This document shows, one piece after another, positions 2,670 to 42,967 of a stretch of DNA of 62,621 nucleotides. This stretch comes from Candidatus Colwellbacteria bacterium. Its GTDB lineage: Bacteria; Patescibacteriota; Minisyncoccia; UBA6257; Colwellbacteraceae. The notes under the pieces were generated by a model. The model did no database searches. It was not told where the DNA came from and was given only the letters and a program-made list of their open reading frames with translations. Where the stretch lies: assembly GCA_028718505.1 (NCBI GenBank), contig JAQULQ010000001.1, forward strand, positions 1 through 62,621. The letters run 5' to 3'. Numbering within the stretch: the stretch's first letter is position 1; each line of letters opens with the position of its first letter. The position numbers and the translations under genes are program-made.

Positions 2670-5600
2670 ATTATCTTAGCTTCTCCGTCTCGCATGGATG
2701 TCCTGCCGCTTATATTTACAGCTTTGTTAATCTCCCAAAGACTGCCTGTTCTAGCTAGTACATCCGAAAAAACAAGTACCTCTATAGTATCACCCAGATC
2801 TTCAATGGTGGCAAAAGCCATGGGTTGACCACTCTTAGTTATAATTTTTTTCACCACAGACACTACTCCGCAAACTTTAACTTCCGCTCCTTCTTTCCCG
2901 TCCTTTTTGATGCTCTTTATGGTCTTGACGGCGTCCCCGCCATTTTTCTCAAAATATTGTTTCAGGGGATGCTCCGTTACATAGAGACCAAGGAGCTCTT
3001 TTTCCCAGCCCAACTTCTCTGCCTTAGTGACCGTACGATTGGCAGGCTGAAGCTTGATCTCAAACTTGTGCACTCCGCCGAAAAGTCCCCGGCTTCCGTT
3101 ACCGCTGTTGCTCTCCCCGGCTGCTCGCAATACAGAATCCACATTTTCCAAAGCCGTCGCTCTGTCTATTCCAAAAGAATCAAGCGCTCCGCTTTTGGTA
3201 AGCGACTCCAAACTTTTTTTATTCAACCCATAGGGCCTGGCACGGAGTGCCAGATCAGCCAATCCCTCAAAGGGGCCGCCCTTCAGTCGTTCCTCGACCA
3301 ACCTTTCGGTCAGTGCTAAGCCGACGTTCTTGATAGCGGAAAGTCCGAAACGGATATTCGCTCCTTCTGGAGCAAAGTGTGCCACACTGTTATTTATGTC
3401 TGGCGGCAGCACCTTGATGCCCATCCTTTCTGCCTCCTGGATGAAAAAAGCAGTCCTTTCTATGTCGTTGCCAGTGTGATTGAGAATAGATGTAATGAAT
3501 TCTTCCGGATAGTGGGTCTTCAGATAAGCGGTCCAATAACCAATAAGAGCGTAAGAAACTGCATGTGACCGGTTAAAACCATAGCGGGCGAAGGGTGGAA
3601 ATAGGTCCCAGATCTTTTCTGCTGTCTTCTTATCAATGCCCCCCTGGATCATGCCCGTTACCAACTTCTCTTTCTGTTCATCTAAGAGTTTCTTGATTTT
3701 CTTGCCGATGGCTTTTCTAAGTGTATCTGCTTCAGGCAGGGTATAGCCCGCTAGGTCGGTGGCGATTTTCATCATCTGCTCTTGATAAACGCCGATGCCA
3801 TAAGTGCTTTTTAGGATCGGTTCGAGAGAAGGATGGATATAGACAACTTTTTCTTCACCCCACTTTCTCTTGATATAGGAGGGGATTAGCTCCATCGGTC
3901 CGGGCCGGTAGAGTGCCACCAGGGCCGTCAGGTCTTCCAGCTCGGAAGGTTTGATCTCCTTCATATATCTGCGCATGCCGGAAGATTCGAACTGAAATAT
4001 GCCGACAGTCTCGCCCGTCCTAAGAAACTCAAAAGTCGCCTGGTCGTTTAGGGGTATCTGCGAAACTCGGATGGTTTCATCTCGCAGTTCTTTGATCAGG
4101 CGTATGGTTTCCTGAATAATGGTCAGATTCCTGAGCCCCAATAAATCGATCTTCAAAAGCCCCAGATCTTCCACGCCGTGCATCTCGACCTGGGTGATAA
4201 TAGTATTGTCGTCCTGGGGGGCACGCTGAATAGCTAAGTATTCCGTAATGGGTTTCTCGGTAACCACCGTTCCGCAGGCGTGCACGGAGGCATGGCGGGC
4301 AACACCTTCAAGATGTGAAGCCATCTGCAGAAGCTCCTTGGCTTTAGGATCGGAATCAGCTATCTGTTTTAATTCAGGGATGGTTTGGAGATAAGTTTCA
4401 ATCTCGCTTTTGGGTCTTCCCTGATTGGGATTAAAGGGGATAAGTTTTGCTATCTGATCGCAGAAAGAATAGGGGAGCCCCATGGCTCTGCCAGCATCGC
4501 GAACAGCCTGCCGGGCAGCCATTGTGCCGAAAGTAATGATTTGGGCTACGTGGTCTTCCCCGTACTTCTCCCTTAAATAGCCGAATACTTCATCGCGCCT
4601 ATTGTCAGCAAAGTCCAGGTCGATGTCGGGCATTTCATTTCTTTCCGGATTAAGGAACCTTTCGAAAAGCAGGCCGTATTTAAGGGGATCAACTTCAGTG
4701 ATGTTCAGCAGATAAGACACCAGACTGCCGGCGGCTGAGCCCCTGCCCGGACCTACCATAATACCCCTGTCTTTTGCCCAGTTCACTAAATCCTGAACTA
4801 TTAAGAAATAATCCTCGAAGCCGGTTTTTTGGATAATGGCCAATTCATGCTCGATTCTGTCCTGGATGGCTTTGTCAGCTTTACCAAAACGTTCTTTTAT
4901 TCCCCCATTAACTAATTTGCGGAGATATTCGATACTGTTCTTTTCGCCTTGGGGAAGCTGATACTTGGGCAGATGTAACTGTTTCAGTTTAAAGTCAAAA
5001 TTGCACTTCTCAGACACTTCAGCCGTATTATCGATCGCTTCCAGGGCGCTTTTTTCATCGATGGCCATTCCGCCCTCTTTAAAGAGTTCCAGCATCTCCT
5101 CGGCCGACGCAAAAAATGCCATATAGCCGCCGAAATTGAAGCGGCTTTCATCGTCAATCTTATTGCCAGTTTGGATAGCCAGCAGAATATCGTGGGTCGG
5201 CTGATCAGCCCTTTCTACATAGTGTGAATCTTGGGTGGCGACTACTTTGATATCCAGTTCTTGCGCTAGTTCGGTTAGATCTTTCTGGTTGAATTTTGTC
5301 TGAGGCTGGATCTCAATGTAATAGTCGTCTCCGAAGAGTCTTTTATAATACTTAGCTATTTCATAAGCCTTTGTTTTCTCTCCGTGTTCTAGCGCCCGAC
5401 TCAGCTCTCCAGCTGGACATCCCGAAAGACATATCAAACCCTCGTGATGTGCCTCTAACAATTCTCTGTCCATGCGAGGCTTGTAATAAAAGCCCTCCAA
5501 GTGGGCCTTGGTGGCTAATTGGACAAGATTTTTATAGCCCATCTCGTTTTTGACCAGAAGAGTAAGGTGATAGCGCTCGGAGTCTTTACCTGGTTCTTTG

Positions 5601-5830
5601 TCGTGTCGGCTGCGCTGAGCCACATATCCCTCCATGCCGATAATGGGTTTGGTGCCCGCCTTTTTTGCCTTTTGGTAGAATTCCACTGACCCATAAAGAT
5701 TGCCGTGGTCTGTAATGGCCAGCGCTTCCATTCCCAACGACTTAGCCTTATCAATCAGTGCATCGATCTTGGAAAGGCCGTCTAGAAGAGAGTAGTGGCT
5801 GTGCGTGTGCAGATGTACGAATTTGTTCAT
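2639..5830 (-). CDS. dnaE: DNA polymerase III alpha subunit
   Basis: 1063-aa ORF with PHP-domain start MNKFVHLHTHSHYSLLDG, pol III alpha core (GSAAGSLVSYLLNITEVDPL) and a C-terminal OB fold. Length is normal, so no intein. Confidence 0.95.
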   Translation of the reverse strand: MNKFVHLHTHSHYSLLDGLSKIDALIDKAKSLGMEALAITDHGNLYGSVEFYQKAKKAGTKPIIGMEGYVAQRSRHDKEPGKDSERYHLTLLVKNEMGYKNLVQLATKAHLEGFYYKPRMDRELLEAHHEGLICLSGCPAGELSRALEHGEKTKAYEIAKYYKRLFGDDYYIEIQPQTKFNQKDLTELAQELDIKVVATQDSHYVERADQPTHDILLAIQTGNKIDDESRFNFGGYMAFFASAEEMLELFKEGGMAIDEKSALEAIDNTAEVSEKCNFDFKLKQLHLPKYQLPQGEKNSIEYLRKLVNGGIKERFGKADKAIQDRIEHELAIIQKTGFEDYFLIVQDLVNWAKDRGIMVGPGRGSAAGSLVSYLLNITEVDPLKYGLLFERFLNPERNEMPDIDLDFADNRRDEVFGYLREKYGEDHVAQIITFGTMAARQAVRDAGRAMGLPYSFCDQIAKLIPFNPNQGRPKSEIETYLQTIPELKQIADSDPKAKELLQMASHLEGVARHASVHACGTVVTEKPITEYLAIQRAPQDDNTIITQVEMHGVEDLGLLKIDLLGLRNLTIIQETIRLIKELRDETIRVSQIPLNDQATFEFLRTGETVGIFQFESSGMRRYMKEIKPSELEDLTALVALYRPGPMELIPSYIKRKWGEEKVVYIHPSLEPILKSTYGIGVYQEQMMKIATDLAGYTLPEADTLRKAIGKKIKKLLDEQKEKLVTGMIQGGIDKKTAEKIWDLFPPFARYGFNRSHAVSYALIGYWTAYLKTHYPEEFITSILNHTGNDIERTAFFIQEAERMGIKVLPPDINNSVAHFAPEGANIRFGLSAIKNVGLALTERLVEERLKGGPFEGLADLALRARPYGLNKKSLESLTKSGALDSFGIDRATALENVDSVLRAAGESNSGNGSRGLFGGVHKFEIKLQPANRTVTKAEKLGWEKELLGLYVTEHPLKQYFEKNGGDAVKTIKSIKKDGKEGAEVKVCGVVSVVKKIITKSGQPMAFATIEDLGDTIEVLVFSDVLARTGSLWEINKAVNISGRTSMRDGEAKIICQNVKEVSL

Positions 5831-5899
5831 AGGGTGACTCTCGTTTCAAATTATACCGACCCTGACCTAAACTTAAAGAAGCGATATCTAAAACTATCA

Positions 5900-6541
5900 A
5901 TGCGATACACCATAGGCATAGACGAAGTGGGCAGGGGAGCTTTGGCCGGACCGGTGGTCGTCGCTGCCGTGGCGGTGCCTGAGGGTTTCAATTCTTATCC
6001 CAGACATCTCCCGAAACTCAAAGATTCTAAAAGACTTTCTCAAAAACAGAGAGAGGTTTGGTACGCGTATATTTGGGAGAATCAACAATTGTTTTCTGCC
6101 AGCGCCCGCGTCTACCAGCACAAAATAGACAGACTGAATATTTCTCAGAGCGCCAATTTAGCCGCCGGCCGCGCCTTGGACGGAGTACTCAAACAGTTGA
6201 ATGATGCCGATGCGATAGATGTTGTTTTAGATGGGGGTTTATATCTAAGACGTAAGAAGCATCTGTCTCTGCGACCCAAAACTATTGTGAGGGGAGACCA
6301 GAGAAGAAATTCGATCAAGCTAGCGTCGATCGTCGCGAAGATCAAGCGGGATAAGTACCTTAGTTTTCTCGACTGCCGATACCCAGGTTATAACCTGGGT
6401 GCACATAAAGGCTATGGAACGAAGATGCACTTTCAGGCCATTCGGGAGCTGGGCATTCTGGAAGTGCATAGAGAAAGTTTTCTTAAAAGCATTAAAATGC
6501 AGCCCAAAGCTGGGAGTAAAAATATCGTTCGGGGTCTTTAA
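5900..6541 (+). CDS. rnhB: ribonuclease HII
   Basis: MRYTIGIDEVGRGALAGPVVVAAV carries the RNase HII DEVGRG motif. I chose ATG 5900; the ORF-track start at 5795 overlaps the dnaE start. Confidence 0.88.
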   Translation: MRYTIGIDEVGRGALAGPVVVAAVAVPEGFNSYPRHLPKLKDSKRLSQKQREVWYAYIWENQQLFSASARVYQHKIDRLNISQSANLAAGRALDGVLKQLNDADAIDVVLDGGLYLRRKKHLSLRPKTIVRGDQRRNSIKLASIVAKIKRDKYLSFLDCRYPGYNLGAHKGYGTKMHFQAIRELGILEVHRESFLKSIKMQPKAGSKNIVRGL

Positions 6542-6571
6542 TTTTTTTACCTTTAGCCTTAAACTATTGGC

Positions 6572-6739
6572 ATGTCCGTACCCAAAAAGAAACACTCTAA
6601 ATCAAAAGCAGGCAGAAGGCGCAGCCATTTAGCCATTAAGAAAACCGCCCTTCATCCCTGTACTAATTGCAAGGCACCCACTCTTTCTCATCAGGTTTGC
6701 AAAAACTGTGGGCAGTATAAGAAAGCGGGCAGCCGTTAG
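6572..6739 (+). CDS. rpmF: 50S ribosomal protein L32
   Basis: 55-aa ORF below the track cutoff: MSVPKKKHSKSKAGRRRSHLAIKKTALHPCTNCKAPTLSHQVCKNCGQYKKAGSR. L32 N-terminus plus CxxC...CxxC zinc ribbon. Confidence 0.85.
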   Translation: MSVPKKKHSKSKAGRRRSHLAIKKTALHPCTNCKAPTLSHQVCKNCGQYKKAGSR

Positions 6740-6754
6740 TGACTTCCTGATCAT

Positions 6755-7210
6755 ATGGCAACGAGACAATTAGGCAGGGGTATAGCTATTCAGTCCCTCT
6801 ATGAATGGGACTTTTACGGGAGAAAGGAAGATATAGAGAAGATCGTTGTACGTAATCTTGAGGAATTCGCCCCCGGGTTCAGTGAACGAGAGTTTATCGA
6901 GAGCCTGACTAAAGGTGTGACTTCGAAAATCGATGAACTGGATAAGATCATCGAAGCCTCGGCACCGGATTGGCCGATCGAAAAATTACCTATCATTGAC
7001 CGAAATGCCCTGCGCATCGGGCTTTACGAGCTCCTTTATGCTGATAGGAAGGAAGTTCCGCCGAGGGTCGCCATTAATGAGGCCATCGAATTAGCGAAAA
7101 CATACGGAGGGCAAAACTCCGGCAAATTTATCAACGGAGTAATGGGAACGGTTTATAGAGAGATCGGTGAGCCCGACAGGAATCCAGAGAAGAGCAGGAC
7201 AGAGAAATGA
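6755..7210 (+). CDS. nusB: transcription antitermination factor NusB
   Basis: 151-aa all-helical ORF with the NusB-type [11 protein letters not shown] segment. Stops with TGA. Confidence 0.85.
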
Positions 7211-7890
7211 ACTTAAAAAAGCTGCAGACGAAGATAGGCATTGAGTTCAGGGACAGTGCTTTTTATGAAGAGGCGTTGACTCACCGTTCCTATCTGAATG
7301 AACACCCGAAATGGCCGCATGGCAATAACGAGCGTCTTGAGTTTTTGGGCGATGCCGTTTTGGAGTTAGCGGTTACAGAGGGAATATATAAGAGATTACC
7401 GAAAGAAGAAGAGGGGAGACTGACGGTTTTCAGAGCCGCTCTGGTAAATACCCGAGCCTTATCTGCGGTAGCCAAAGAGATCGGCTTAGACAAAATGCTG
7501 CTCCTCTCGAAGGGAGAGGCCAAAGATGTAAACAGTAAGGGCAGAGAAAGTATTTCCGCCAATGTGGTCGAGGCGCTGATAGGAGCGCTTTATCTGGACA
7601 GAGGATTTGAAGTGGCCCGAGGATTTATAGAAAGGCATATTCTTTCTAAGCTGGAAGGCGTTAAAGACCAAGGCGGTAAAGATGCCAAGAGCTTAGTACA
7701 GGAATATGCCCAAGCCCGCTTTAAAGTGACTCCCACTTACGAAGTGATAGAAGAATCCGGGCCTGCTCACGAAAGGCGGTTCAAGGTGGGATTATTCTTT
7801 GATGATAAGCTGAAATCTGAGGGCAAAGGTGCTTCCAAGCAAGAGGCCGAACTGGATGCGGCGGAAAAACTGATGCAGAAGCTCAGCTAA
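7207..7890 (+). CDS. rnc: ribonuclease III
   Basis: RNase III signature [12 protein letters not shown] plus a C-terminal dsRBD ([10 protein letters not shown]...[10 protein letters not shown]). Confidence 0.95.
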
Positions 7891-7920
7891 AGTATAGAAC
7901 TCAAAGAACACCGAAAGAAG

Positions 7921-10071
7921 ATGCTTTTGCGGCGCCTAAAACTTCAGGGATTTAAATCTTTCGCGGACAAGACTGTCCTCGATCTGAGTCATAATGTAAC
8001 TGCTATTGTGGGGCCGAACGGCTCGGGTAAGTCTAATTTAACAGACAGCGTACGCTGGCTGTTAGGTGAGCGTGATGCCCGTAATCTGCGGGGAGGAAAA
8101 GGGGAAGACCTAATATTCGCCGGCACAAAAACTAAGCCGCGGGCTGGTCAGGCCTGGGCATCTTTACACTTCAGCAACGAATCTGGCTTCCTCCCGGTTG
8201 CTTACAAAGATGTTGTTATTACGCGCAAAGTGACCCGTGATGGCAGCTCTCTCTTCACTATTAATAAATCAGAAGTTCGCCTTAAAGATGTGCTCGAGTT
8301 CTTTGCGAAATCTAAAACGGGTGCACGCGGATTCAATATTATTGGCCAAGGAGAGAGCGATGTTTTTATCAAGGCTACTCCTCAAGAGAGAAGAGAAATG
8401 ATAGAAGAGCTTCTGGGCCTGAAAGAATATCAGATGAAGAAAGGAGAAGCCTTGCGCAAACTTAAAAGCACGGCTTTCAATCTGGAAAAAGCTCAGGCTC
8501 TTATCCAAGAGCTCGAGCCGCACTTGCGCCTCCTGCGCAAGCAGGCCAGGCGCTACGAGGGCAGAGAAGACGCGGAAAAAGAACTTACCAACCTCGAGAA
8601 TTATTTCTATGGGTATCAGCTTTTAGAACTTGAGAAAGGAATCAAAACGCAGGAAGCAGAAGAAAAAGAAAACCGAGCCCTGCTTAGGGCAGAGAAAGAA
8701 AAATTAGCCAATCTGCAGAAAGATTTGGAGCGGATCAAAGATACTGAACCTCAGTCAGCCGGGGAGTTCCCAAAGATCAAGCTAGAAGAGGAAAAGCTCC
8801 ACAGAGAACGGGCTGAGCTACAGATAGAGTTAGGCAAGATGGAGGTAAGGCTAGAGCTGACGTCGGAGGAGAGCGCGGATGTTCCCAAACTGAAACAGGT
8901 ACTGGCTGAAGTGCGTAAAGTATCTGAAAAATTAATGGAAGAGAGCGGTCTGGAAAGTATTAGAGAGGGGTTGAAAAAAATTATCAAACTGACGAACTTA
9001 GCCAAGGAGACTGGCGGACGGAGTAATGAGCAGTATAAAAAAACATATCAGGAGACAGCCAAAGAAATAAATAAGCTTGAGAGGGAGCTGGAGGGGATCA
9101 GAGATAGGGCTGCAGAGATTAATAAGAGCCTTCAGGGCTTTAACGAGAGTTTCACCAAGGCCTATGAGTTAGTAGCTAAACAGCAGGCGAAGGTCAATGA
9201 AGCCGTCAGTTTGGAAAACGATCGTTTGATTAAAAAGGAGCGATTAGAAATACGCCTCGAAGCCCTACTCGAAGAACTTAAGCAGATTGGCCGGCCCAAG
9301 GATTCTCTGGCCGTGAATGCCGTTAAACTAGATCTTACCGATGATGAAATCAGACAAAAAATGCTTAAGCTTCGCTCTTATCTTGCCAGCATTGGCGAAG
9401 TGGACGAAACAGTTATCAAAGAAGCTAATGAAACGGAGGAAAGACATGCCTTTTTGGTTGCTCAGGTGGAAGATCTAGGAAAAGCAATGGCGGATCTGCA
9501 AAAGCTGACTGTCGAGCTTGATAGAAAGATCCATGACGACTTTAATATTGCCATTACCAAGATAGACCGGGAATTCCATAAGCTTGTGCAATTGGTTTTT
9601 GGCGGCGGGAAAGCTAGTCTCAAACTCGAGAAAGTGAAAGTAGAGAAGAGAAAAACAGAAATAAACGAAGCTGAAGATAGTCCGTCTGACGAACCAGACA
9701 GAGAGTCCCCAGATGATAGCGAGCCGGAAGCGGTTTCTCCGGGCGTGCTGATTGATGTCACTTTACCTAAAAAGCGTATCAAGGGTCTTGAGGTCCTTTC
9801 TGGAGGAGAGAGGGCCTTAGTCTCAATAGCCGCTCTTTTTTCGCTCGTTTCTGTCAGTCCGCCCCCTTTTCTTTTTTTGGATGAAGTAGATGCCGCACTT
9901 GATGAGAGAAATGCCCGCCGTTTCGGAGAAATTCTTAAGGAGTTCGCTCAAAGGACTCAATTCGTGATAGTTACGCACAATCGGGCCACAATGGAGGTGG
10001 CAGATGCACTCTACGGCGTTACGATGGCGGAAGACGGCACGTCCAAACTAGTGTCTTTGAAGTTGACTTAA
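7921..10071 (+). CDS. smc: SMC-family chromosome segregation ATPase, short hinge-less form (716 aa)
   Basis: SMC N-head (LKLQGFKSFADKT...IVGPNGSGKSNLTDSVRWLLGE) and C-head (LSGGERALVSIAALF...FLFLDEVDAALDE...VTHNRATME). Only about 400 aa of coiled coil lies between them, and there is no cysteine or hinge-like globular segment. Confidence 0.85.
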   Translation: MLLRRLKLQGFKSFADKTVLDLSHNVTAIVGPNGSGKSNLTDSVRWLLGERDARNLRGGKGEDLIFAGTKTKPRAGQAWASLHFSNESGFLPVAYKDVVITRKVTRDGSSLFTINKSEVRLKDVLEFFAKSKTGARGFNIIGQGESDVFIKATPQERREMIEELLGLKEYQMKKGEALRKLKSTAFNLEKAQALIQELEPHLRLLRKQARRYEGREDAEKELTNLENYFYGYQLLELEKGIKTQEAEEKENRALLRAEKEKLANLQKDLERIKDTEPQSAGEFPKIKLEEEKLHRERAELQIELGKMEVRLELTSEESADVPKLKQVLAEVRKVSEKLMEESGLESIREGLKKIIKLTNLAKETGGRSNEQYKKTYQETAKEINKLERELEGIRDRAAEINKSLQGFNESFTKAYELVAKQQAKVNEAVSLENDRLIKKERLEIRLEALLEELKQIGRPKDSLAVNAVKLDLTDDEIRQKMLKLRSYLASIGEVDETVIKEANETEERHAFLVAQVEDLGKAMADLQKLTVELDRKIHDDFNIAITKIDREFHKLVQLVFGGGKASLKLEKVKVEKRKTEINEAEDSPSDEPDRESPDDSEPEAVSPGVLIDVTLPKKRIKGLEVLSGGERALVSIAALFSLVSVSPPPFLFLDEVDAALDERNARRFGEILKEFAQRTQFVIVTHNRATMEVADALYGVTMAEDGTSKLVSLKLT

Positions 10072-26597: not shown

Positions 26598-28472
26598 ATG
26601 GCTAAGATATTGGGTATTGATCTAGGAACAACCAATTCGGCTGCGGCGGTGATTGAGGGGGGCGAACCAAAGATATTAGAGAATTCAGAAGGTAACCGAA
26701 CGACCCCGTCCGTAGTAGCTGTTTCTAAGTCCGGCGAGCGCTTAGTGGGTCTACTGGCTAAGCGGCAATCGATCACTAACCCCCAGAACACTGTCTCATC
26801 GATCAAGCGTTTGATAGGACGGAAGTATTCAGATCCCGAGGTAGAAAAGGACAAAAAAGTTCTTCCCTTCGACTTAAAAGAATCATCGGACGGCGGTGTA
26901 GAGATAAAAATGGGCGGCAAGTGGCATAAGCCGGAAGAGATATCGGCCATGATCTTGGCAAAGCTTAAGAAGGATGCGGAGACTAGGCTCGGAGAAACCA
27001 TAGAGGAAGCGGTTATAACGGTCCCTGCTTACTTCGACGATTCTCAAAGACAGGCAACCAAAAATGCAGGTGAGATAGCCGGGCTGAAAGTTCGTCGGAT
27101 AATTAACGAACCGACTGCTGCTGCGCTTGCCTATGGATTGGATAAGCAGAAAAATGAGATCATTGTAGTCTTTGATTTTGGGGGCGGTACGTTTGATATC
27201 TCCGTGCTGGAGGTGGGGGACAACACGGTAGAGGTGAAAGCTACCGGTGGAGACACTCATCTAGGCGGTGACGATTTTGACCAGCTGATCATTAATTATC
27301 TAGTCAGCGAATATAAAAAACAGGAAAGCATAGATATTTCCAAGGATCCGCTCGCGCTCCAGCGCCTGAAAGAGGCAGTCGAGCGTGCCAAGCATGAGTT
27401 GTCCAGCTCGGTTGAGACAGAGGTTAACCTCCCCTATATTACCTCCGATAATTCCGGCCCTAAGCACTTCCTGGTCAAACTATCCAGAGCGAAGCTCGAG
27501 GAATTAACCGAAGGTTTAATTAAGAAGTCTATCGAACTGGTAAAGGAGGTTGTGACAGCCAGGGTTCCCAAAGGGGCGGGGCTGAAGCTGGGAGATATAG
27601 ATGAAATCATCCTTGTTGGTGGCCAAACTAGGATGCCGGCTATCCAAAACGCAGTTAGGGAATTCTTTGGGAAAGACCCGCATCTTGGTATTAATCCCGA
27701 CGAAGTAGTAGCCATGGGGGCAGCTATCCAGGCTGGGATCTTGCAGGGGGACGTTAGGGATGTCCTGCTCCTGGACGTCACGCCGCTTTCGTTAGGCATT
27801 GAGACTTTGGGCGGCGTTTTCACCAAACTCATAGAGAGAAACACTACTATCCCCACCTCTAAAAGCCAGGTTTTTTCGACGGCTGCAGACGGCCAGACTT
27901 CAGTAGAAGTACACGTTCTGCAGGGAGAAAGAGAAATGGCTTCGGATAATAAAACACTCGGCCGGTTTATTTTAGACGGAATTCCGCCGTCCCCTAGAGG
28001 TATTCCCCAGGTAGAAGTCAGCTTCGACATAGACGCTAATGGCATCCTGGATGTAAAAGCGGTTGATAAGGCTACGGGTAAAAGCCAGTCGGTGCGTATC
28101 GAAGCTTCGACTTCGCTAAGCAAAGACGAGATAGAGCGCCTTAAAAGAGAGGCAGCCGAGCATGCCAGTGAGGATAAAGAGAAGCGTGAGTTGGTTGAGC
28201 TGCGTAATCAGGGAGAGGGCCTTGTCCATACAGCAGAGAAATCCATCAAAGATGCAGGCCCGAAGATACCGGCCGAGACCATCAAAGAGATAGAAGGCGG
28301 GATCAACGACCTGAAGGATGCGCTGAGATCTAACGATAAAGCCGCTATTAGGGACAAGACAGAGTCCCTTTCGAGGTCGCTTCAAAAAGTAGGTGAAATA
28401 TTGTATAAAGAAGCCAAGAATGAGCCTGATAAGGATGAATCTGCTGAGAAGGAAGGGGGTTCAGGCGGATAG
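26598..28472 (+). CDS. dnaK: molecular chaperone DnaK
   Basis: [23 protein letters not shown]-type ([11 protein letters not shown]), and the full Hsp70 layout. Confidence 0.97.
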
Positions 28473-29499
28473 CCAGGGCGGTTCTGGTAACGAAGATTCT
28501 CCGAAGATAATTACACCCCATCATTTAGGCGGGGGTTTAGCTGTTTCCAAGAGGCCGGTTGTGCGTGCACAATCCGTCTCCCGCCTCAAGGTGTATGCAG
28601 TTATTATTATCAGTGCCTTAGCTGCATTTACTGCCGGCTATCTTTTTAGCATATGGTCCTTTGCCTATGGGGCAATTGCTTTAGTAGTTTTTACTGTGCT
28701 TTTTACAACTCAGACTATCCTCCTGAGGAGACCCCTGGACATCATTCTGGTGGTAGCGGCAGACTCTATAGGTCTTGCTCTATTCTTAAATAAAACTTCA
28801 TCCAGCGTTGCCGTCTGTCTGCTAGTTGTTCTAGTGGTGATGTTCGGTCTGTCACATTTAGCCAGTAGGTTCGCCATGGATAACATGGTGCAGCTGAAAT
28901 TCTTCAGAGTAGTAAGACCTGGCAGCGGTTTCCTTTTCATTGCTCTAAGCGTGTTTGCTGGTTGTATCTTATTTCTGAATAGCGCCACCCTCCTCAACAC
29001 ACACAATACTTCAAGAGTAATGGATGCTCTTGTTCAGCCGATTTTAAGCAGGAAGGTGGCAGGCTTCTCTGCCGAGATGGATCTTGGTAATTTTCTGCAC
29101 GACTATGTTAGGGCGGAGCTAAGCAAGAACGAACAGTTTAAGGGTCTGCCCGAGCTTGAGAAAGAAAAAGTAATCACTGCGCAGGTTGCTGAACTAGCGG
29201 TTCTCATAGAGAACCGTAGTGGATACGGACCACAGATGGCACAATCGGTGGCAGAGAACGTGCGTGAATTTATATCAATCAAAGCAGGGACATTGTATCC
29301 GGAGAATCAGCTGGCTAGGTTGGCGCTAACAACTCTGATCCTTATATTGGTAGTAAAAAGCATCGAGTTTCTGCTCTTTCCCGTTCTGGCCATTCTGAGC
29401 TTGCTGCTTTATGAGTTTTTGCTCGGTTTCGGATTTGCAGAAATACAATTTGAGTCTCGCAGTAAAGAGATACTAAATCTTCCTAGTCGGCGTCCTTGA
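28435..29499 (+). CDS. hypothetical polytopic membrane protein inside the dnaK operon
   Basis: Long ORF with at least six hydrophobic helices. Start is uncertain (ATG 28393/28420/28435 overlap dnaK; GTG 28561 follows an AAGAGG). Confidence 0.55.
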
Positions 29500-30679: not shown

Positions 30680-30752
30680 CCGCCCGTAGCTCAATTGGCA
30701 GAGCAACGGCCTTTTAAGCCGGTGGTTGGAGGTTCGATTCCTCCCGGGCGGA
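30680..30752 (+). tRNA. tRNA-Lys (TTT)
   Basis: Acceptor CCGCCCG/CGGGCGG, anticodon arm ACGGC-CTTTTAA-GCCGG, T arm GGAGG-TTCGATT-CCTCC. Confidence 0.85.
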
Positions 30753-30760
30753 CACACGAT

Positions 30761-32904: not shown

Positions 32905-32942
32905 ACTGACTGTTGGGGGCATTAATGTGATAGAATAAGGGT

Positions 32943-32996
32943 ATTACCCGAATATGGGATTTGTTGCTTGACGAGTCTCGGGTAATGTTGTAATCT
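32943..32996 (+). promoter_or_regulatory. promoter with a flanking 9-bp inverted repeat (operator candidate) upstream of the sigma-r4/HARE-HTH gene
   Basis: TTGACG (32968-32973), 17-nt spacer, TAATCT (32991-32996). ATTACCCGA (32943-32951) and TCGGGTAAT (32978-32986) bracket the -35 element. Confidence 0.45.
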
Positions 32997-33011
32997 AGAA
33001 TTCAGTTAATT

Positions 33012-33860
33012 ATGTCCAAAGTTATAGTGGAAATAGACATAGACGGTCTCATCAAAAAGGCCCTGCAGATACAAGATAGTCGGGCCAAGGATATTGTTGT
33101 CCGTCGGCATGGCCTAAAGACCTCAAAGAGGCAGACTTTAGCCAGTCTCGGTTCTGAGTATGGTCTAACCAGAGAGAGAGTGCGTCAAATCGAAGCAGCT
33201 TCACTTAGAAATATAAAATCTAAGATAGAAGAAGAAAAGGAGGCCCGTGAATTCATTAAATTTACCGAGGATTATTTGGAGAAAGTATCAAAATTGAGAC
33301 GTAGTGATCTGCTGGCGCGGGATATCTGGGTGCTTTGCGGTCTATCCGACAATTACGACCCTATTTTTGAGAACAAGCTGAACTTTATTGCTAAGACCCT
33401 GGGTCGGCCGTATGTGATTGATGCTACTCCCGGTTTGCATACTATTTGGCACATTGATGAGGGTGCCTATGGGTTAGCTCTTATGCTGGTCAGAAAACTG
33501 CTCAGTATTAAGGAGCATAGCTTTGATAAGTTCCTGGAGTCTGTCATCGGTGAACACAAGTTAACTGAATCGGTTATCTTGAACTATCTATCTGTGTCAA
33601 AGAACTTCGGAGTCGGCCCGTTCGGGGATATAGGTGCGGATAGCTGGGCACAGGTGAACCCCAGAACAGTTAGAGATAAGGCTTATCTGGTCTTAAGTCA
33701 GACCGATGCGCCGATGCACTTTAGGGAAATCGCCAAATTGGTTAACGAGATCAGTAGAAAGGGGAAAGCGCCCGCAACTGTTCATAACGAACTTATTCGC
33801 GACCCCAGATTCACTTTAGTTAGCAGAGGCACCTATTCGTTAAATGAGCGAGCTAGCTAG
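33012..33860 (+). CDS. DNA-binding protein with an N-terminal sigma-70 region-4-like HTH and a C-terminal HARE-HTH (RpoE-delta-like) domain
   Basis: VRRHGLKTSKRQTLASLGSEYGLTRERVRQIEAASLRNIK matches the sigma region 4 pattern. AYLVLSQTDAPMHFREIAKLV...ELIRDPRFTLVSRGTYSL matches the HARE-HTH pattern. Confidence 0.7.
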   Translation: MSKVIVEIDIDGLIKKALQIQDSRAKDIVVRRHGLKTSKRQTLASLGSEYGLTRERVRQIEAASLRNIKSKIEEEKEAREFIKFTEDYLEKVSKLRRSDLLARDIWVLCGLSDNYDPIFENKLNFIAKTLGRPYVIDATPGLHTIWHIDEGAYGLALMLVRKLLSIKEHSFDKFLESVIGEHKLTESVILNYLSVSKNFGVGPFGDIGADSWAQVNPRTVRDKAYLVLSQTDAPMHFREIAKLVNEISRKGKAPATVHNELIRDPRFTLVSRGTYSLNERAS

Positions 33861-35151
33861 TGGTTTAGGCAATGCTTTTTCTTTTTGGTGGCTTGTAATC
33901 CCCGTTGTTATTATCACGATCGCCAGGGATTGGTGGAGGATACATATTGTTGATGAATACATCTCTAAACTGAAGTGGGTGTTGCTTGAGATAAATATTC
34001 CCAAAGAGAATCTAAGGTCAGCCAAAGCTATGGAGCAGGTTGTGGGCTCTCTGCACGGAGCTTATTCTTTCGGTTTGCGCTTCAAACAGCGCTGGCTAGA
34101 AGGCGTGGTAGAGGATTGGTTTTCGCTGGAGATAGTGGGCTTCGCCGACGGCGTTCATTTTTTTATCAGAACCCTGCAAAAACACCGTAAGCTGGCAGAA
34201 GCGGCTATTCTATCACAGTACCCGGATGCGGAGATTCTTGAGGTTGAAGATTATGTGGGCCGGATCAAAGATAAGCCTTTTCATCAGAAAGATATCTGGG
34301 GCATGGATCTTAAGCTCAATAATCCGGATTATTATCCTATCCGGACTTATGAATACTTTGAGGATAAGGAGGAGGAAAAGCGCATTGATCCTTTAGCGAC
34401 TGTCGTAGAGGTAATGTCTAGTCTTAACAAGAACGAAGCTCTTTGGCTTCAGCTTCTGATCAGACCGGTTGGTGATGAATGGCGTAAAGCAGGTGAGGAA
34501 AGGATCAAAGAAATGTCCGGGCAGAAAACCGTCAGTAAGAAAACGTCGTCCGTCGGTACGGTGTTTAAAGAAGTGGGGGACGTCGCGGCCAGCTTGCCGA
34601 CCGCTATTTTTACCCCGCCCGTTTTTGGCGAAGTTAAACCCGTGGTCGCAGAAAAGCAGGTTTTCAGAATGCGCGATCCGAAAGAAGAGGATGCCCTTAA
34701 GGCTATCAGCAACAAGATCTCCAAGAGAGCATTCGATTGTATCTTAAGGTTTGTTTACGTAGACGACAGGGAAGACTTTACCGACAGCAATATCAACGCC
34801 GTTATGGGTGCACTCCGCTATTTAGGAGATCAGAACCTCAATAGTTTAGGGCCGAATCGAAAAACCCTGACCACCAAGTACGCAGCTGCTAAGTATTTAC
34901 TTTTTCTTAGAAAAAAGAGGCTGGCCAGACGCAAAAAGAAATTGCTTATTAACTACATTAGGCGCGAAATGCCTAGGCCGATTCTGATGGCTCCGCTCGA
35001 GGGATTTTTAAAAACCTCTGTTATGTGTACGGAAGAGATAGCGACCCTGTTCCATCCGCCGGCAGAATTTGTTAAGTCGATGAAGACACAGGTTATTCCG
35101 TCCAGAAAGGCACAGGCCCCGATGGATCTTCCGACTAAAGAGAGAATTTAA
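33844..35151 (+). CDS. hypothetical membrane-anchored protein, probable partner of the downstream TraD-like ATPase
   Basis: Single N-terminal TM helix (FSFWWLVIPVVIITIA) and a large soluble part ending ...TEEIATLFHPP. Overlaps both neighbours (17 nt upstream; 2-nt gap downstream). Confidence 0.6.
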   Translation: MSELASGLGNAFSFWWLVIPVVIITIARDWWRIHIVDEYISKLKWVLLEINIPKENLRSAKAMEQVVGSLHGAYSFGLRFKQRWLEGVVEDWFSLEIVGFADGVHFFIRTLQKHRKLAEAAILSQYPDAEILEVEDYVGRIKDKPFHQKDIWGMDLKLNNPDYYPIRTYEYFEDKEEEKRIDPLATVVEVMSSLNKNEALWLQLLIRPVGDEWRKAGEERIKEMSGQKTVSKKTSSVGTVFKEVGDVAASLPTAIFTPPVFGEVKPVVAEKQVFRMRDPKEEDALKAISNKISKRAFDCILRFVYVDDREDFTDSNINAVMGALRYLGDQNLNSLGPNRKTLTTKYAAAKYLLFLRKKRLARRKKKLLINYIRREMPRPILMAPLEGFLKTSVMCTEEIATLFHPPAEFVKSMKTQVIPSRKAQAPMDLPTKERI

Positions 35152-35153
35152 TC

Positions 35154-36614
35154 ATGGATAACAACGAGAAAGACATAACCATTGTCGGCAAGACCAATTT
35201 TCGCAACCGAGAATCCTTCGGCATTAAGAAAATAGATCGCCGTAAGCACATCTACATCATGGGTAAAACAGGAACCGGCAAGAGCACCCTGATGGAGAAT
35301 ATGCTGATAGACGACATAAGAGAGGGCAAAGGAGTCGGCTTGATAGATCCCCACGGCGACTTTGCTGAGAGAGTTTTAAGTTTTGTGCCCGAAGAGAGGG
35401 TGGGCGACGTCGTCTACTTTGACCCCGGGGACGTCAATCATCCCATCGGTTTTAACCCGCTTGAAGCCGTTGGCAGTGAACACAGGCACTTGGTGGCTTC
35501 AGGTATCATGGGTGTCTTTAAAAAGGTTTGGCCGGATGTCTGGTCGAACCGTATGGAATACCTTTTGAACAATACACTCTTGGCTCTTCTGGAATACCCG
35601 GGCTCCACTCTTCTGGGAGTTATAAAGATGCTAACTGACAAGAAATACAGGGACAAGATAGTGACAGAACTGACTGACCCGGTAGTCAAGAATTTCTGGA
35701 CGAACGAATTCTCGAAATGGACAGACAGATATGCGGCTGAAGCTGTCCCGGCAGTACTTAACAAAATTGGCCAGCTAATCGCCAATCCGCTCATTAGACA
35801 CATCCTTGGGCAATCGCATTCTACCATCAACCTTAGGCAGATTATGGACGAGGGCAAGATCCTCATTATTAACCTCTCTAAAGGAAAAATAGGGGAAGAT
35901 AACTCAGCGCTTTTGGGAGCTATGTTTATCACTAAGTTCCAGATGGCTGCTATGAGCAGGATAGATATTATAAACGAAGAAGACAGACGTGATTTTTATC
36001 TGTATATCGATGAATTCCAGAATTTCTCGACCGATTCATTTGCCGATATTCTCTCCGAGGCCAGAAAGTACCATCTAAGCCTGGTTTTAGTTAATCAATA
36101 CTTGGGGCAGTTGGTTGATCCCGTGACCAGGAGTAGTAAGGTCCGAGACGCCATTTTTGGTAACGTCGGCACCATCGTTACTTTCAGGATCGGAGCAGAA
36201 GATTCCGAATTTCTAGAGCTTGAGTTCGAGCCGGAGTTTACAGCTAATGATTTGGTGAACCTGCCGCTTCATAAGATGTATATCAAGCTGATGATAGACG
36301 GAGTGGCGTCTAAGCCATTCTCGGCTGATACCTTTCCTCCGCATCAACCCGGAGAAATAAGCTATGCGGATATTATCGTAGAAAACAGCCGGGAAAAATA
36401 CGGTGTTCCAATCAAGGAAGTTGAGGAAAAAATAGGCAGTGAATATATAGAGGCCGACAAGATAGTTGAGGAACGTACTAGGAGACGAGGTGAGAGCGGC
36501 CTGAGGGTTCTCAGAGAAGAGCCAGCCCTAAAGAAAAAGAAAGAGATCGATAAAAACAAGCTAAGGGAGGCTCTCGGGTCTTCTCTGCCGAAAGACGAAG
36601 GTGCTGGGGATTAA
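35154..36614 (+). CDS. TraD/VirD4-like (type IV coupling protein-like) P-loop ATPase without a TM domain
   Basis: Walker A IMGKTGTGKST and Walker B FYLYIDEFQNF, with the TraG/TraD C-terminal-type layout. The lysine/glutamate-rich tail is disordered-looking. Confidence 0.75.
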   Translation: MDNNEKDITIVGKTNFRNRESFGIKKIDRRKHIYIMGKTGTGKSTLMENMLIDDIREGKGVGLIDPHGDFAERVLSFVPEERVGDVVYFDPGDVNHPIGFNPLEAVGSEHRHLVASGIMGVFKKVWPDVWSNRMEYLLNNTLLALLEYPGSTLLGVIKMLTDKKYRDKIVTELTDPVVKNFWTNEFSKWTDRYAAEAVPAVLNKIGQLIANPLIRHILGQSHSTINLRQIMDEGKILIINLSKGKIGEDNSALLGAMFITKFQMAAMSRIDIINEEDRRDFYLYIDEFQNFSTDSFADILSEARKYHLSLVLVNQYLGQLVDPVTRSSKVRDAIFGNVGTIVTFRIGAEDSEFLELEFEPEFTANDLVNLPLHKMYIKLMIDGVASKPFSADTFPPHQPGEISYADIIVENSREKYGVPIKEVEEKIGSEYIEADKIVEERTRRRGESGLRVLREEPALKKKKEIDKNKLREALGSSLPKDEGAGD

Positions 36615-40956: not shown

Positions 40957-42375
40957 ATGCGTATCTTGGCGAGTGAGATATTGGAAAAAGTAGGTGAGAG
41001 GGTGGAGCTAGCCGGATGGGTGAGTGCTAGACGTGACCACGGTAAACTTATTTTTATTGACCTTCGCGACAGAACTGGAGTAGTTCAGCTTGTTTTTAAC
41101 GCCAATAAACAGGTTGACGTATACAAATTAGCGGATACTCTCCGGCCCGAATGGGTGATTCGCATTGTGGGTGAGGTGGGAGAACGTCCTGCGGGGATGA
41201 TTAACGAAGACATAGAAACGGGCAAAGTAGAGGTGGCCGTAGAAGAGTTGGAGATTTTGGCGGAGGCCGAGACACCTCCCTTTGAATTAAGCACGGACGG
41301 CTATGAAATTAATGAGGAGCTGAGGATGAAGTACCGGTATCTCGATATGAGGCGCGGGAGGATAAAGAAAAATCTCATCGCCCGGCATGAGATAACCGAT
41401 TTTACCCGCCGGTTTTTCTATGACCACGGCTTTACCGAAGTTGAAACCCCATATATTAGCAAATCTACGCCGGAAGGTGCCCGTGACTATCTGGTTCCGT
41501 CCAGGCTTCAGCCGGGTATGTTTTACGCTTTGCCTCAGTCTCCCCAGCAGTATAAACAGCTTTTGATGATCGGCGGTCTAGAACGTTATTTCCAGATGGC
41601 TCGGTGTTTCAGGGATGAGGATACTCGGGGTGATCGTCAGCCTGAGTTCACCCAGATCGATATTGAGATGAGTTTTGTGGAGCAGGAAGACGTGCTGGGA
41701 TTAATAGAAGAATATTTAATACAGCTTTCCAGCAAACTTTATCCTCATAAGAAATTGACGCTGGAGAATGGAAGAATACCCAGGATGCTCTATGAAGTTG
41801 CTATGAGCAAATATGGCACCGATAGACCCGATGTTCGTAAAGATAAAAAAGACGATAACGAATTCGCTCCTGTCTTTGTGGTTGATTTCCCGATGTTCGA
41901 GCAGAGAGAAGATAAAAGTTGGGGAGCGGCTCATCATCCCTTCACTATGCCGGACGTAAAAGATGCAAAAGAACTGAAAGCGAAATTCAAAAAAGCCCCT
42001 CTGTCTATTAAGGGCCTTCAGTATGATGTTGTTCTGAACGGTTGGGAAATCTTCGGTGGTTCCATCCGCAACCATAATCCGGAACTGCTCAAAGCGGTAT
42101 TTGAAGTAATGGGGCACAAGAGTAAAGATATAGAGGAGCGGTTCGGGCATCTGCTCAAAGCCTTCCGCTATGGTGTACCTCCTCACGGCGGGATAGCTTG
42201 CGGCTTTGATAGGCTGGTGGCAATTCTCCAGAATGAACCCAATATTCGTGAAGTCATCGCTTTTCCGAAAACAGGCGACGGCCGAGACCTAATGATGGAT
42301 GCGCCGTCCGCAGTGGATAAGAAGCAGTTGAAAGAGTTGGGACTGAGTGTTAAAAAAAGTAAGAAGAATGAATAA
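40957..42375 (+). CDS. aspS: aspartyl-tRNA synthetase (472 aa, no GAD insertion domain)
   Basis: OB-fold N-terminus (GWVSARRDHGKLIFIDLRDRTG), motif 2 FRDEDTRGDRQPEFTQID and motif 3 GFDRLV. Confidence 0.93.
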   Translation: MRILASEILEKVGERVELAGWVSARRDHGKLIFIDLRDRTGVVQLVFNANKQVDVYKLADTLRPEWVIRIVGEVGERPAGMINEDIETGKVEVAVEELEILAEAETPPFELSTDGYEINEELRMKYRYLDMRRGRIKKNLIARHEITDFTRRFFYDHGFTEVETPYISKSTPEGARDYLVPSRLQPGMFYALPQSPQQYKQLLMIGGLERYFQMARCFRDEDTRGDRQPEFTQIDIEMSFVEQEDVLGLIEEYLIQLSSKLYPHKKLTLENGRIPRMLYEVAMSKYGTDRPDVRKDKKDDNEFAPVFVVDFPMFEQREDKSWGAAHHPFTMPDVKDAKELKAKFKKAPLSIKGLQYDVVLNGWEIFGGSIRNHNPELLKAVFEVMGHKSKDIEERFGHLLKAFRYGVPPHGGIACGFDRLVAILQNEPNIREVIAFPKTGDGRDLMMDAPSAVDKKQLKELGLSVKKSKKNE

Positions 42376-42967
42376 GAAGGAAAGAAGCTTGGTGCTCATT
42401 AAACCGGACGGCGTTCAGAGAGGATTGATTGGAGAGGTTATAAAACGTTACGAAAGAACTGGCCTAAAGCTAGTTGGCCTTAAAATGTTCGTGCCCACGG
42501 CCGACTTTGTAAAGAAACATTATTTGCTTGATCCAGGTTGGAAACAGAGCAATGGAGAGAAAACAATAAATGCTTATAAAGCCAAGGGCCAGGAGCCCCC
42601 GATCAGTGATCCAATCAAAGCTGCTGAGAAAACATTAGGAAGACTGAAATCTTATATATCTTCTGGTCCGGTCGTGGCTATGGTTTGGCAGGGGATGAAC
42701 GCGGTAGAAGTCATCAGAAAAATAACTGGAGGGACAGAACCGCGCACATCAGACATCGGTACGATAAGGGGAGATTTCACCATCGATTCTTATGAAATTG
42801 CCGATTTAGATGATCGGTCAGTCAGGAACATTATTCATGCGTCGGGCTCTCCCAAAGAAGCCGAGATGGAGGTGAAACACTGGTTCGAAGACGAGGAGCT
42901 GATGAATTACAGATTGGTTGGCGAAGAGATCCTTTACGACGTTAATCTAGACGGCATTTTGGAATAG
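42368..42967 (+). CDS. ndk: nucleoside-diphosphate kinase with insertions (199 aa)
   Basis: IKPDGVQRGLIGEVI, GPVVAMVW, TIRGDF and NIIHAS motifs. ATG 42368 is preferred over track start 42347. Confidence 0.88.
   Translation: MNKKERSLVLIKPDGVQRGLIGEVIKRYERTGLKLVGLKMFVPTADFVKKHYLLDPGWKQSNGEKTINAYKAKGQEPPISDPIKAAEKTLGRLKSYISSGPVVAMVWQGMNAVEVIRKITGGTEPRTSDIGTIRGDFTIDSYEIADLDDRSVRNIIHASGSPKEAEMEVKHWFEDEELMNYRLVGEEILYDVNLDGILE

Follow-up and report, generated by a model that had tools for sequence, protein, structure and literature searches.

What is the role of a VirD4-like ATPase that is encoded far from the genes of a type IV secretion system (T4SS)? Although the genomes of Patescibacteria are tiny, nearly all retain such an ATPase, a puzzle raised in the survey of Quinonero-Coronel et al. 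(2025, PMC12102498; all statements on this survey concern the passages of it covered here). VirD4-like homologues were found there in 2,918 of 3,035 Patescibacteria genomes, and 148 of 5,713 such homologues are located near virB4. The question is considered here for a locus in a 62,621-nucleotide stretch of DNA from a Candidatus Colwellbacteria bacterium (contig JAQULQ010000001.1, positions 1–62,621; this whole stretch is called the window), where an ATPase of this kind (gene 3) is the last of three tightly packed genes, behind a DNA-binding protein (gene 1) and a membrane protein (gene 2). We consider it probable, taking the statement as a whole, that this trio encodes a split type IV coupling protein (T4CP) together with a DNA-binding partner, for the ATP-driven transfer of a substrate, most likely DNA, to a conduit in the membrane. 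The three genes, which will also be used as names for their protein products, are located as follows.

33012–33860, + strand: gene 1, a DNA-binding protein of 282 residues (from the list of open reading frames, ORFs)
33844–35151, + strand: gene 2, a single-pass membrane protein of 435 residues, family DUF8128 (ORF list and precomputed Pfam assignment)
35154–36614, + strand: gene 3, a P-loop ATPase of the TrwB/VirD4 family with 486 residues (ORF list and Pfam)

The overlap between genes 1 and 2 is 17 nt, and genes 2 and 3 are 2 nt apart.

Gene 3 is a TrwB/VirD4-type motor, with a nucleotide-binding domain and a helical insertion. It is matched by the Pfam families TrwB_AAD_bind (42.2 bits, cut-off 20.5), T4SS-DNA_transf (37.7 bits, cut-off 20.1), and TraG-D_C (25.7 bits, cut-off 22), as well as by DUF87, while the score for FtsK_SpoIIIE is only 15.9 bits. 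The scores for the NCBIfam equivalogs (CD1115 family and TraD) are far below their cut-offs. As the Pfam families are passed and the equivalog cut-offs are missed, gene 3 represents a divergent subfamily of coupling proteins. The Walker A and Walker B motifs (GKTGTGKST and YLYIDEFQNF) are on invariant columns of the family, and residues G37, T39, G40, G42, K43, D286, and E287 are invariant in 53 homologues. A search with the gene 3 profile against the sequences in the Protein Data Bank (PDB) finds TrwB (E value 3.7e-7) and DotL (1.4e-4). The AlphaFold2 model of gene 3 has a predicted local distance difference test (pLDDT) score of 82.9, and a helical block is located at residues ~111–232. The best structural matches found with the program Foldseek are TrwB, Cag-beta, and DotL, with E values of 5e-9 to 4e-8, TM-scores of 0.50–0.64, and sequence identities of 12–18%. 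HerA and the C-terminal domain (CTD) of VirB4 rank behind these three.

There is one clear difference, however, between gene 3 and its closest structural relatives. TrwB (of R388), VirD4, Cag-beta, and DotL have in common with gene 3 the Walker A/B motifs, the Pfam families, and the helical insertion. In TrwB/VirD4-type proteins, an N-terminal membrane domain is part of the same polypeptide. In comparison, the N-terminus of gene 3 (MDNNEKDITIVGK...) contains no hydrophobic segment, and the only membrane helix of the gene 2–gene 3 pair is that of gene 2. Moreover, classical coupling proteins have a T4SS and a relaxase alongside, whereas gene 3 has none nearby and its partner is a protein with a VirB4-like domain (see below).

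The C-terminal tail of gene 3 is charged. Among the homologues (L073–L086 and others of the locus set described below), the tail extends for 55–319 residues past the residue that is aligned with position 428 of the window protein (tail encoded at 36440–36614 in the window). A zinc ribbon of the CxxC...CxxC type (for example CWACGKKTKVSFKPDGVRPVYCKECL) is observed in 27 of 75 tails and is absent from the window protein. Many of the tails end in a motif of the VDIxxLRxALxESLKK type (IDKNKLREALGSSL in the window) or in PGQVIKF. Judging from their sequences, these terminal motifs could be for docking.

Evidence that genes 2 and 3 belong to one machine comes from natural fusions on plasmids. A tblastn search with gene 3 against plasmid sequences finds matches in 645 records. 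In Bacillaceae plasmids, the match is located in the C-terminal part of a protein of ~870–910 residues, annotated as 'DUF87 domain-containing protein'. The example used here is the following.

WP_248290882.1, on plasmid NZ_CP012476.1: fused protein of 883 residues

The tblastn match between gene 3 and this protein has 28% identity and an E value of 3e-31. In profile alignments with hhalign, the gene 2 profile is placed on residues 35–313 (probability 98%, E value 1.8e-13) and the gene 3 profile on residues 324–720 (probability 99.9%, E value 1.2e-33). The gene 2 profile is similarly aligned with the fused protein of a Niallia plasmid (probability 98%, E value 1.2e-14). A tblastn search with gene 2 against the plasmids gives no match, and the relationship is visible only with the profile. 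A fragment of such a fused protein carries precomputed assignments to both PF26449 (DUF8128) and DUF87. The N-terminal domain is present on 18 Bacillaceae plasmids. The gene that contains it is annotated as a DUF87-domain protein in 15 of them and as an ATPase or a hypothetical protein in the remaining three.

The order of the domains in the fused protein is the same as the order of the genes in the window, gene 2 followed by gene 3. The profile alignments strongly support the assignment of gene 2 as the N-terminal domain that is fused to the same motor in Bacillaceae, with a transmembrane helix in addition; the fused proteins themselves have no N-terminal transmembrane helix. As genes 2 and 3 are collinear on a single plasmid protein, the pair can be described as a split type IV coupling protein, and the occurrence of two genes as halves of a single protein elsewhere is a classical argument for one joint machine. 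The first-pass annotation, made without database searches, had suggested that genes 2 and 3 form a split, membrane-tethered machine, and the fusion, as seen in the sequence profiles, gives this suggestion strong and independent support.

In the three plasmids that were inspected, the fused gene adjoins a relaxase of the replication-relaxation family and is located upstream of conjugal-transfer genes, TcpD/TcpE, and a separate AAA_10 VirB4. The fused gene is therefore in the position of a coupling protein, and its coupling role is suggested by this position; our literature search found no experimental work on the Bacillaceae fused proteins. The fused protein is one polypeptide, is borne on a plasmid beside a relaxase, and has no partner like gene 1, whereas the trio in the window is split and chromosomal.

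Other long homologues of gene 3 were rejected as fusions. The N-termini of the proteins from Bradyrhizobium (708 residues) and Rhodococcus (738 residues) are unrelated to gene 2, and the alignment of DUF8128 with the protein from Embleya (812 residues) is not significant (probability 6%, E value 0.006). The gene order at 2252–9328 of the Embleya linear plasmid NZ_CP108778 (L092) is PrgI, XF1762, a VirB4-like ATPase, the 812-residue coupling protein, a replication-relaxation relaxase, and NlpC/P60. This coupling protein, whose N-terminal ~400 residues were the part aligned, may represent a very distant form of the DUF8128–ATPase architecture. The coupling protein of pLS20 (gene 48) has two N-terminal membrane segments (PMC8557374). 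It was not taken as a model for the fused protein, which has none; the two were compared by domain layout rather than by sequence.

Gene 2 belongs to the Pfam family PF26449 (DUF8128), by precomputed assignments for the window protein and for nearly all of the listed homologues. Searches of gene 2 against our local copies of Pfam and NCBIfam gave no match, including to PF26449. The family is large, with 3,558 clusters at 50% identity (E value ≤ 1e-3), and the best 150 clusters are all stand-alone proteins of ~315–550 residues. No papers on DUF8128 were found in the literature. In 65 homologues, there is one hydrophobic helix near the N-terminus (mean hydropathy over 19 residues, 2.18), and the mean number of Lys and Arg residues is 0.23 before this helix and 2.72 in the 15 residues after it. 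This charge bias indicates an N-out, C-in topology, which would place the large domain in the cytoplasm; the topology is predicted from the sequences.

The AlphaFold2 model of gene 2, based on the 65 homologues, has a pLDDT score of 86.5 and a predicted TM-score (pTM) of 0.82. A Foldseek search with this model through the PDB finds full-length chains of the R388 VirB4 protein, TrwK, as the top 13 matches, with E values of 6e-6 to 2e-4, probability 1.0, and TM-scores of 0.32–0.36. No other structure is matched at an E value of 0.001 or below. None of the top 50 matches is to a VirB4 structure with the CTD only (4ag5), to TrwB, or to HerA. As structures that contain only the ATPase are absent, we infer that the matched region is the N-terminal domain of VirB4, which the ~390-residue domain of gene 2 would resemble. 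A VirB4-like fold for this domain, which the first-pass annotation could not assign, is thus strongly supported by the predicted model. At the sequence level, in comparison, the gene 2 profile finds nothing relevant among the PDB sequences, VirB4 included, and the probability in hhalign with a VirB4 from Firmicutes is 0.2%.

In R388, the N-terminal domain of VirB4 (residues 15–400) is wrapped by the membrane-spanning protein VirB3 and serves to attach the ATPase to the inner-membrane complex (PMC9259494). The arrangement of gene 2, a membrane helix followed by a domain of ~390 residues that matches TrwK, is reminiscent of this pair (TrwM/TrwK in R388). There are also differences. Gene 2 has no detectable similarity to TrwM/TrwK at the sequence level and the TM-scores are low, and the motor in TrwK is the CTD of VirB4, whereas the motor attached to gene 2 is VirD4-like.

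Gene 1 is a sigma region 4.2/HARE-HTH protein and is not a sigma factor, an assignment that its sequence matches support strongly. It consists of a sigma region 4.2 (residues ~15–75), a variable middle part, and a HARE-HTH domain (residues 218–278). The matches to the Pfam families Sigma70_r4 (residues 22–69, 30 bits) and HARE-HTH (residues 218–278, 27.4 bits) are both above the cut-offs, and a profile of the family (54 sequences) finds region 4 of RpoD/SigA in the PDB with E values of 1e-19 to 1e-20. The recognition helix of gene 1 (GLTRERVRQIE) is identical to that of RpoS (GLTRERVRQIQ) except for the last residue, and it is essentially the recognition helix of both RpoS and RpoD. Sigma regions 1–3 are absent, and region 4 is the only sigma match. 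The scores against the NCBIfam models of full-length sigma factors are 30–49 bits, with cut-offs of 240–800, and the score against the equivalog of the RNA polymerase delta subunit (TIGR04567) is 19.9 bits, with a cut-off of 42. As these scores are far below the cut-offs, gene 1 is neither a sigma factor nor a delta subunit. It shares the region 4.2 recognition helix with primary sigma factors but lacks their regions 1–3. In the delta subunit (RpoE), the HARE-HTH domain is N-terminal and is followed by an acidic tail, whereas in gene 1 this domain is C-terminal and there is no acidic tail. Our literature search found nothing on HARE-HTH domains in Patescibacteria or on a sigma region 4/HARE-HTH partner.

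Typical members of the gene 1 family have 340–370 residues and carry an extra winged-helix module at the C-terminus. This second module is missing in a Colwellbacteria-like clade that includes the window. The members of this clade (the window, L009, L012, L014, L046, L055, and L094–L096) also have the shortest gene 3 tails, with a median of 64 residues compared to 140 residues (Mann-Whitney p = 4e-4). As it may reflect a single evolutionary event, the association is only a hint that the two parts are linked.

The descriptions of the three proteins in the first-pass annotation agree with these results. It had described gene 1 as a helix-turn-helix of the sigma-70 region 4 type with a C-terminal HARE-HTH domain, which is borne out by the Pfam matches. 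The single N-terminal transmembrane helix and large soluble domain noted for gene 2 are in accord with the hydropathy of the homologues. For gene 3, the Walker A/B layout of a coupling protein without a transmembrane segment is confirmed by the invariant motifs and the Pfam scores.

The trio was compared over 86 non-redundant loci from related genomes, and the distribution of gene 2 was scanned with one genome per species. Relatives of gene 2 are found in at least 577 species-level genomes. Where the taxon name of the carrier is informative, it points to the Patescibacteria, namely to ABY1 and to lineages within the Parcubacteria supergroup. Gene 3 is directly 3′ of gene 2 in 76 of 78 assessable loci, gene 1 is directly 5′ of gene 2 in 74 of 80, and secF is upstream of the trio in 53 of 67. 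A lack of such co-conservation had been named beforehand as an observation that would speak against a joint function of the three genes, and the gene order is instead kept in nearly all of the loci. The median identity to the window is highest for gene 3 (58.6%), compared to SecD (52%), EF-P (47%), and SecF (45%), and is 34% for gene 2 and 33% for gene 1. Clustering of the neighbors finds SecDF in 60 loci, MnmA in 33, EF-P in 27, DnaJ in 11, and ComEC in 9, and no further gene is consistently linked to the trio. The trio does not belong to a mobile element, a possibility that the first-pass annotation had also considered, as the base composition is uniform and the neighbors are housekeeping genes across the loci. 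These observations strongly support the trio as a core, vertically inherited chromosomal operon of Parcubacteria-type Patescibacteria.

In four of the loci (L061, L068, L071, and L079), gene 2 (~5800–7400) directly follows secF without a gene 1 in between, and the longest ORF for gene 2 in this sub-clade is longer (466–521 residues). Many records of metagenome-assembled genomes that contain the trio (L008, L011–L013, L061–L063, L068, and others) carry labels such as 'uncultured Candidatus Saccharibacteria', 'Gammaproteobacteria', 'Bdellovibrionales', or 'Bathyarchaeia'. These look like unreliable bulk labels or mis-binned contigs.

Based on these data, the architectural part of our explanation, a split coupling protein with a DNA-binding partner encoded in a core operon, is very likely to be correct. 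In the proposed mechanism, gene 2, with its N-terminus outside and its C-terminal domain inside, would hold a hexamer of gene 3 at the cytoplasmic face of the membrane, in a manner that would mirror the docking of VirB4 through its VirB3-wrapped N-terminal domain. With the energy of ATP, the gene 3 ring would then pass its substrate, for which DNA is the most likely candidate, to a conduit in the membrane. Gene 1 might mark or recruit the DNA with its -35-type recognition helix and its winged helices, or it might merely regulate the operon. A candidate for the conduit is the chromosomal T4SS of the phylum, encoded elsewhere, or it could be another channel. This functional part, that the substrate is DNA and that it is delivered to a membrane conduit, is put forward tentatively, and we hold it to be somewhat doubtful.

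Several observations weigh against the overall explanation. No relaxase, VirB4, or channel gene is found within 6 kb of the trio in any of the 86 loci, by tblastn and neighbor clustering, and VirB4 is present in 2,417 Patescibacteria genomes, fewer than have coupling-protein homologues (PMC12102498). A classical coupling role is therefore only putative. In Candidatus Southlakia epibionticum, a coupling-protein homologue, which may or may not be an orthologue of gene 3, was reported to be non-essential whereas the T4SS genes were essential (cited in PMC12102498). An adjacent gene 1 is missing in five loci (L047, L061, L062, L068, and L079), an adjacent gene 3 is missing in L019, and neither is adjacent to gene 2 in L071. 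The likeness between gene 2 and VirB4 is at the level of the fold only, with TM-scores in the range given above, and neither the profile search nor hhalign detects VirB4. Finally, the role of gene 1 may be limited to that of a transcription factor.

The window comes from a core part of the chromosome of a member of the Patescibacteria, with Candidatus Colwellbacteria, of the Parcubacteria group, as the nearest named relatives. It was annotated by scanning 20 ORFs against Pfam, together with the tRNAs and with genes named by synteny or translation. All annotated genes outside the trio are housekeeping genes, including dnaK, dnaJ, secD, secF, efp, mnmA, comEC, aspS, dnaB, the genes for DNA polymerase III alpha and ribosomal protein L2, and tRNAs. 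The secF gene ends at 32904, upstream of the trio, and efp starts with a GTG codon at 36601, downstream, with an overlap of 14 nt with the end of gene 3. This overlap, found in the clade of the window (including L094–L096), points to co-transcription; outside this clade, efp is either missing or encoded on the other strand. Base composition is flat over the window. A tblastn search of the window with VirB4 and PrgI as queries found no VirB4, none of the annotated genes was seen to encode a relaxase, an integrase, or a pilin, and the window contains no paralogues of genes 1, 2, or 3. The packing of the three genes in the first-pass annotation is reproduced exactly by the ORF coordinates, and its statements that the flanks are secDF and efp, and that no T4SS, relaxase, pilin, or integrase gene is nearby, hold as well. 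Matches to the trio sequence in metagenomes are from DNA data sets only, from landfill, sediment, groundwater, and wastewater.

A few features of the neighboring genes were also observed. The tRNA-Lys gene (30680–30753) overlaps the start of the longest ORF for secD (30695). The true start of secD must therefore be further downstream, and is probably the Met residue in ...HDMEARKQ. A hydrophobic ORF of 368 residues without a Pfam match (28393–29499) is located between dnaK and dnaJ, and locus L005 has a 308-residue gene without a Pfam match in the equivalent position. This ORF may encode a conserved membrane protein of no known family. Two window stretches, 7921–10071 and 42347–42967, were named for an SMC-like protein, which has only 716 residues, and a nucleoside diphosphate kinase. 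The Pfam model for the kinase is matched in two separate stretches, which suggests an insertion.

The region between secF and gene 1 contains the following elements.

32928–32936, + strand: extended -10-like element TGATAGAAT, with TGnTAnAAT invariant in an alignment of the secF–gene 1 spacers of four genomes
32943–32951, + strand: left arm of an inverted repeat, ATTACCCGA, the perfect complement of 32978–32986, with 26 nt between the arms
32968–32973, + strand: -35-like hexamer TTGACG, with TTGAC invariant in the four-genome alignment, located between the arms of the repeat
32978–32986, + strand: right arm of the same repeat, TCGGGTAAT, located within the spacer of the promoter
32988–32996, + strand: -10-like element TTGTAATCT, with the columns T.TTGTA.T.T invariant in the four-genome alignment

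The -35-like hexamer is TTGAC(g/a) across the four related genomes, and the TTGTAATCT element contains TGTAAT at 32989–32994 and TAATCT at 32991–32996. A scan for consensus promoters called none upstream of gene 1. The conservation of the extended -10 element and of the TTGAC/TTGTAATCT pair suggests that the trio is probably driven by a promoter or promoters of its own. The first-pass annotation had placed this promoter between the arms of the 9-bp inverted repeat. The repeat is indeed perfect and the promoter-like elements are conserved, but the arms enclose only the -35-like hexamer. A role of the repeat as an operator or a hairpin is not supported. The arms are not conserved in three close relatives (L094, L095, and L096), whose gene 2 products are 72–84% identical to that of the window, and the predicted RNA fold is unremarkable (z = -1.67, with 12 of 200 shuffled sequences folding as well). 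The 9-mer occurs three more times in the window, in unrelated contexts inside unrelated genes.

Other explanations of the trio have been weighed against the split coupling protein. Genes 2 and 3 could form a pump for double-stranded DNA that is independent of a T4SS and acts at the membrane in FtsK-like segregation or clearance, with gene 1 as a sequence reader like FtsK gamma. The near-universal gene core, the housekeeping context at all times, the conservation of gene 3 above that of SecD, SecF, and EF-P, the larger number of genomes with coupling-protein homologues than with VirB4 (PMC12102498), and the three DNA-binding modules of gene 1 in most lineages are all in its favor. However, gene 3 is nearer to TrwB than to FtsK, by its low FtsK_SpoIIIE score and by the absence of FtsK from the top structural matches, and no link to division genes was seen. 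By our analysis such a pump would be quite unlikely. We also regard as unlikely that the trio is a T4SS-independent housekeeping machine for DNA handling, unique to ultra-small bacteria, in which gene 1 would read -35 hexamers or dock on RNA polymerase and load chromosomal or host-derived DNA onto the split motor, for segregation or for DNA exchange with the host. A motor for DNA uptake, in which the gene 2–gene 3 ring pulls single-stranded DNA through ComEC in a ComFA-type role and gene 1 is a helper, is improbable. The relatives of gene 3 are DNA translocases, and comEC is on the same strand as the trio, 2.2 kb downstream in the window and downstream in 13 loci; it is the fifth commonest neighbor, at 3.5 kb or less in 9 of the 86 loci. 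However, this synteny is loose. Housekeeping genes such as efp and mnmA are always between the trio and comEC, efp is inverted in many loci, and SecDF, MnmA, and EF-P are far commoner neighbors, so that the link to ComEC looks like ancestral gene order. Moreover, all homologues with a functional context are in the coupling-protein position of conjugation modules, which are for export, and we know of no competence system with a VirD4-type ATPase. The partnership with ComEC proposed in the first-pass annotation is not upheld by these data.

The role of gene 1 is treated differently in a further explanation, where it is only an autoregulator of the operon and the gene 2–gene 3 motor recruits proteins, such as effectors or pilins, to a T4SS. 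The invariant TTGAC upstream of gene 1 in four relatives is the type of site expected for the region 4.2 helix, but an ordinary promoter for the primary sigma factor explains it equally well. The T4SS clusters of Patescibacteria mostly lack relaxases and are thought to be repurposed (PMC12102498; PMC10633639), and a few lineages have genes 2 and 3 but no gene 1 beside them. On the other hand, the presence of gene 1 beside gene 2 in 74 of 80 loci over a deep divergence is above what is usual for a mere regulator, and no effector-like gene is linked to the trio. We give this explanation a low probability. A remnant of a conjugative element or an anti-phage defense module, finally, is highly improbable. 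HARE-HTH domains are common in restriction systems. With PADLOC, gene 3 matches mad8 (3e-17), DndH (8e-8), and HerA models (~1e-6), and gene 1 matches MzaA, in the sigma region 4 part only; homologues on plasmids exist as well. However, gene 2 has no plasmid match by tblastn, the base composition is uniform, and no integrase, relaxase, methylase, nuclease, or tRNA-flanked island was found around the trio. The distribution is near-universal rather than patchy, and the position between secDF and efp/mnmA is fixed in most of the 86 loci. This fixed housekeeping context disfavors the defense and mobile-element readings despite the matches to mad8 and DndH.

The split coupling protein can be related to earlier work. 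Gene 3 very probably belongs to the published set of virB4-distant VirD4-like homologues in Patescibacteria (PMC12102498), which are likewise chromosomal, near-universal, and far from virB4. The survey has about two homologues per genome, and a second coupling-protein paralogue therefore exists. Its authors suggested a possible exaptation of the virB4-distant homologues. The operon, the gene 2 partner, the fusion in Firmicutes, and the sigma region 4/HARE-HTH gene are not described in the covered passages of the survey, and there appears to be no earlier description of the operon, of the gene 2 assignment, or of the fusion. The statement in the first-pass annotation that no function is established is right for the function itself, but virB4-distant homologues had already been reported (PMC12102498). 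For pIP501, a coupling protein made of two parts has been suggested, with TraI as the anchor of TraJ (PMC12857230). TraJ is, like gene 3, an ATPase without a membrane segment, with a separate membrane protein as the proposed anchor. TraI is small and has two membrane segments, compared to the 435 residues and the VirB4-like domain of gene 2; the two are set side by side here by their descriptions.

The virB4-distant ATPase of the Patescibacteria is now placed in an operon of three genes, and a role is assigned to the large DUF8128 family. The result is a concrete design for a motor in two pieces, backed by a natural fusion and with a candidate DNA-reading partner. As the fused form occurs on plasmids of Bacillus subtilis, the function of the domain is testable in a genetically tractable organism. 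If the VirB4-like assignment is true, some monoderm coupling proteins would have a docking domain of the VirB4 type, and this would bear on the divergence of the two families of T4SS ATPases.

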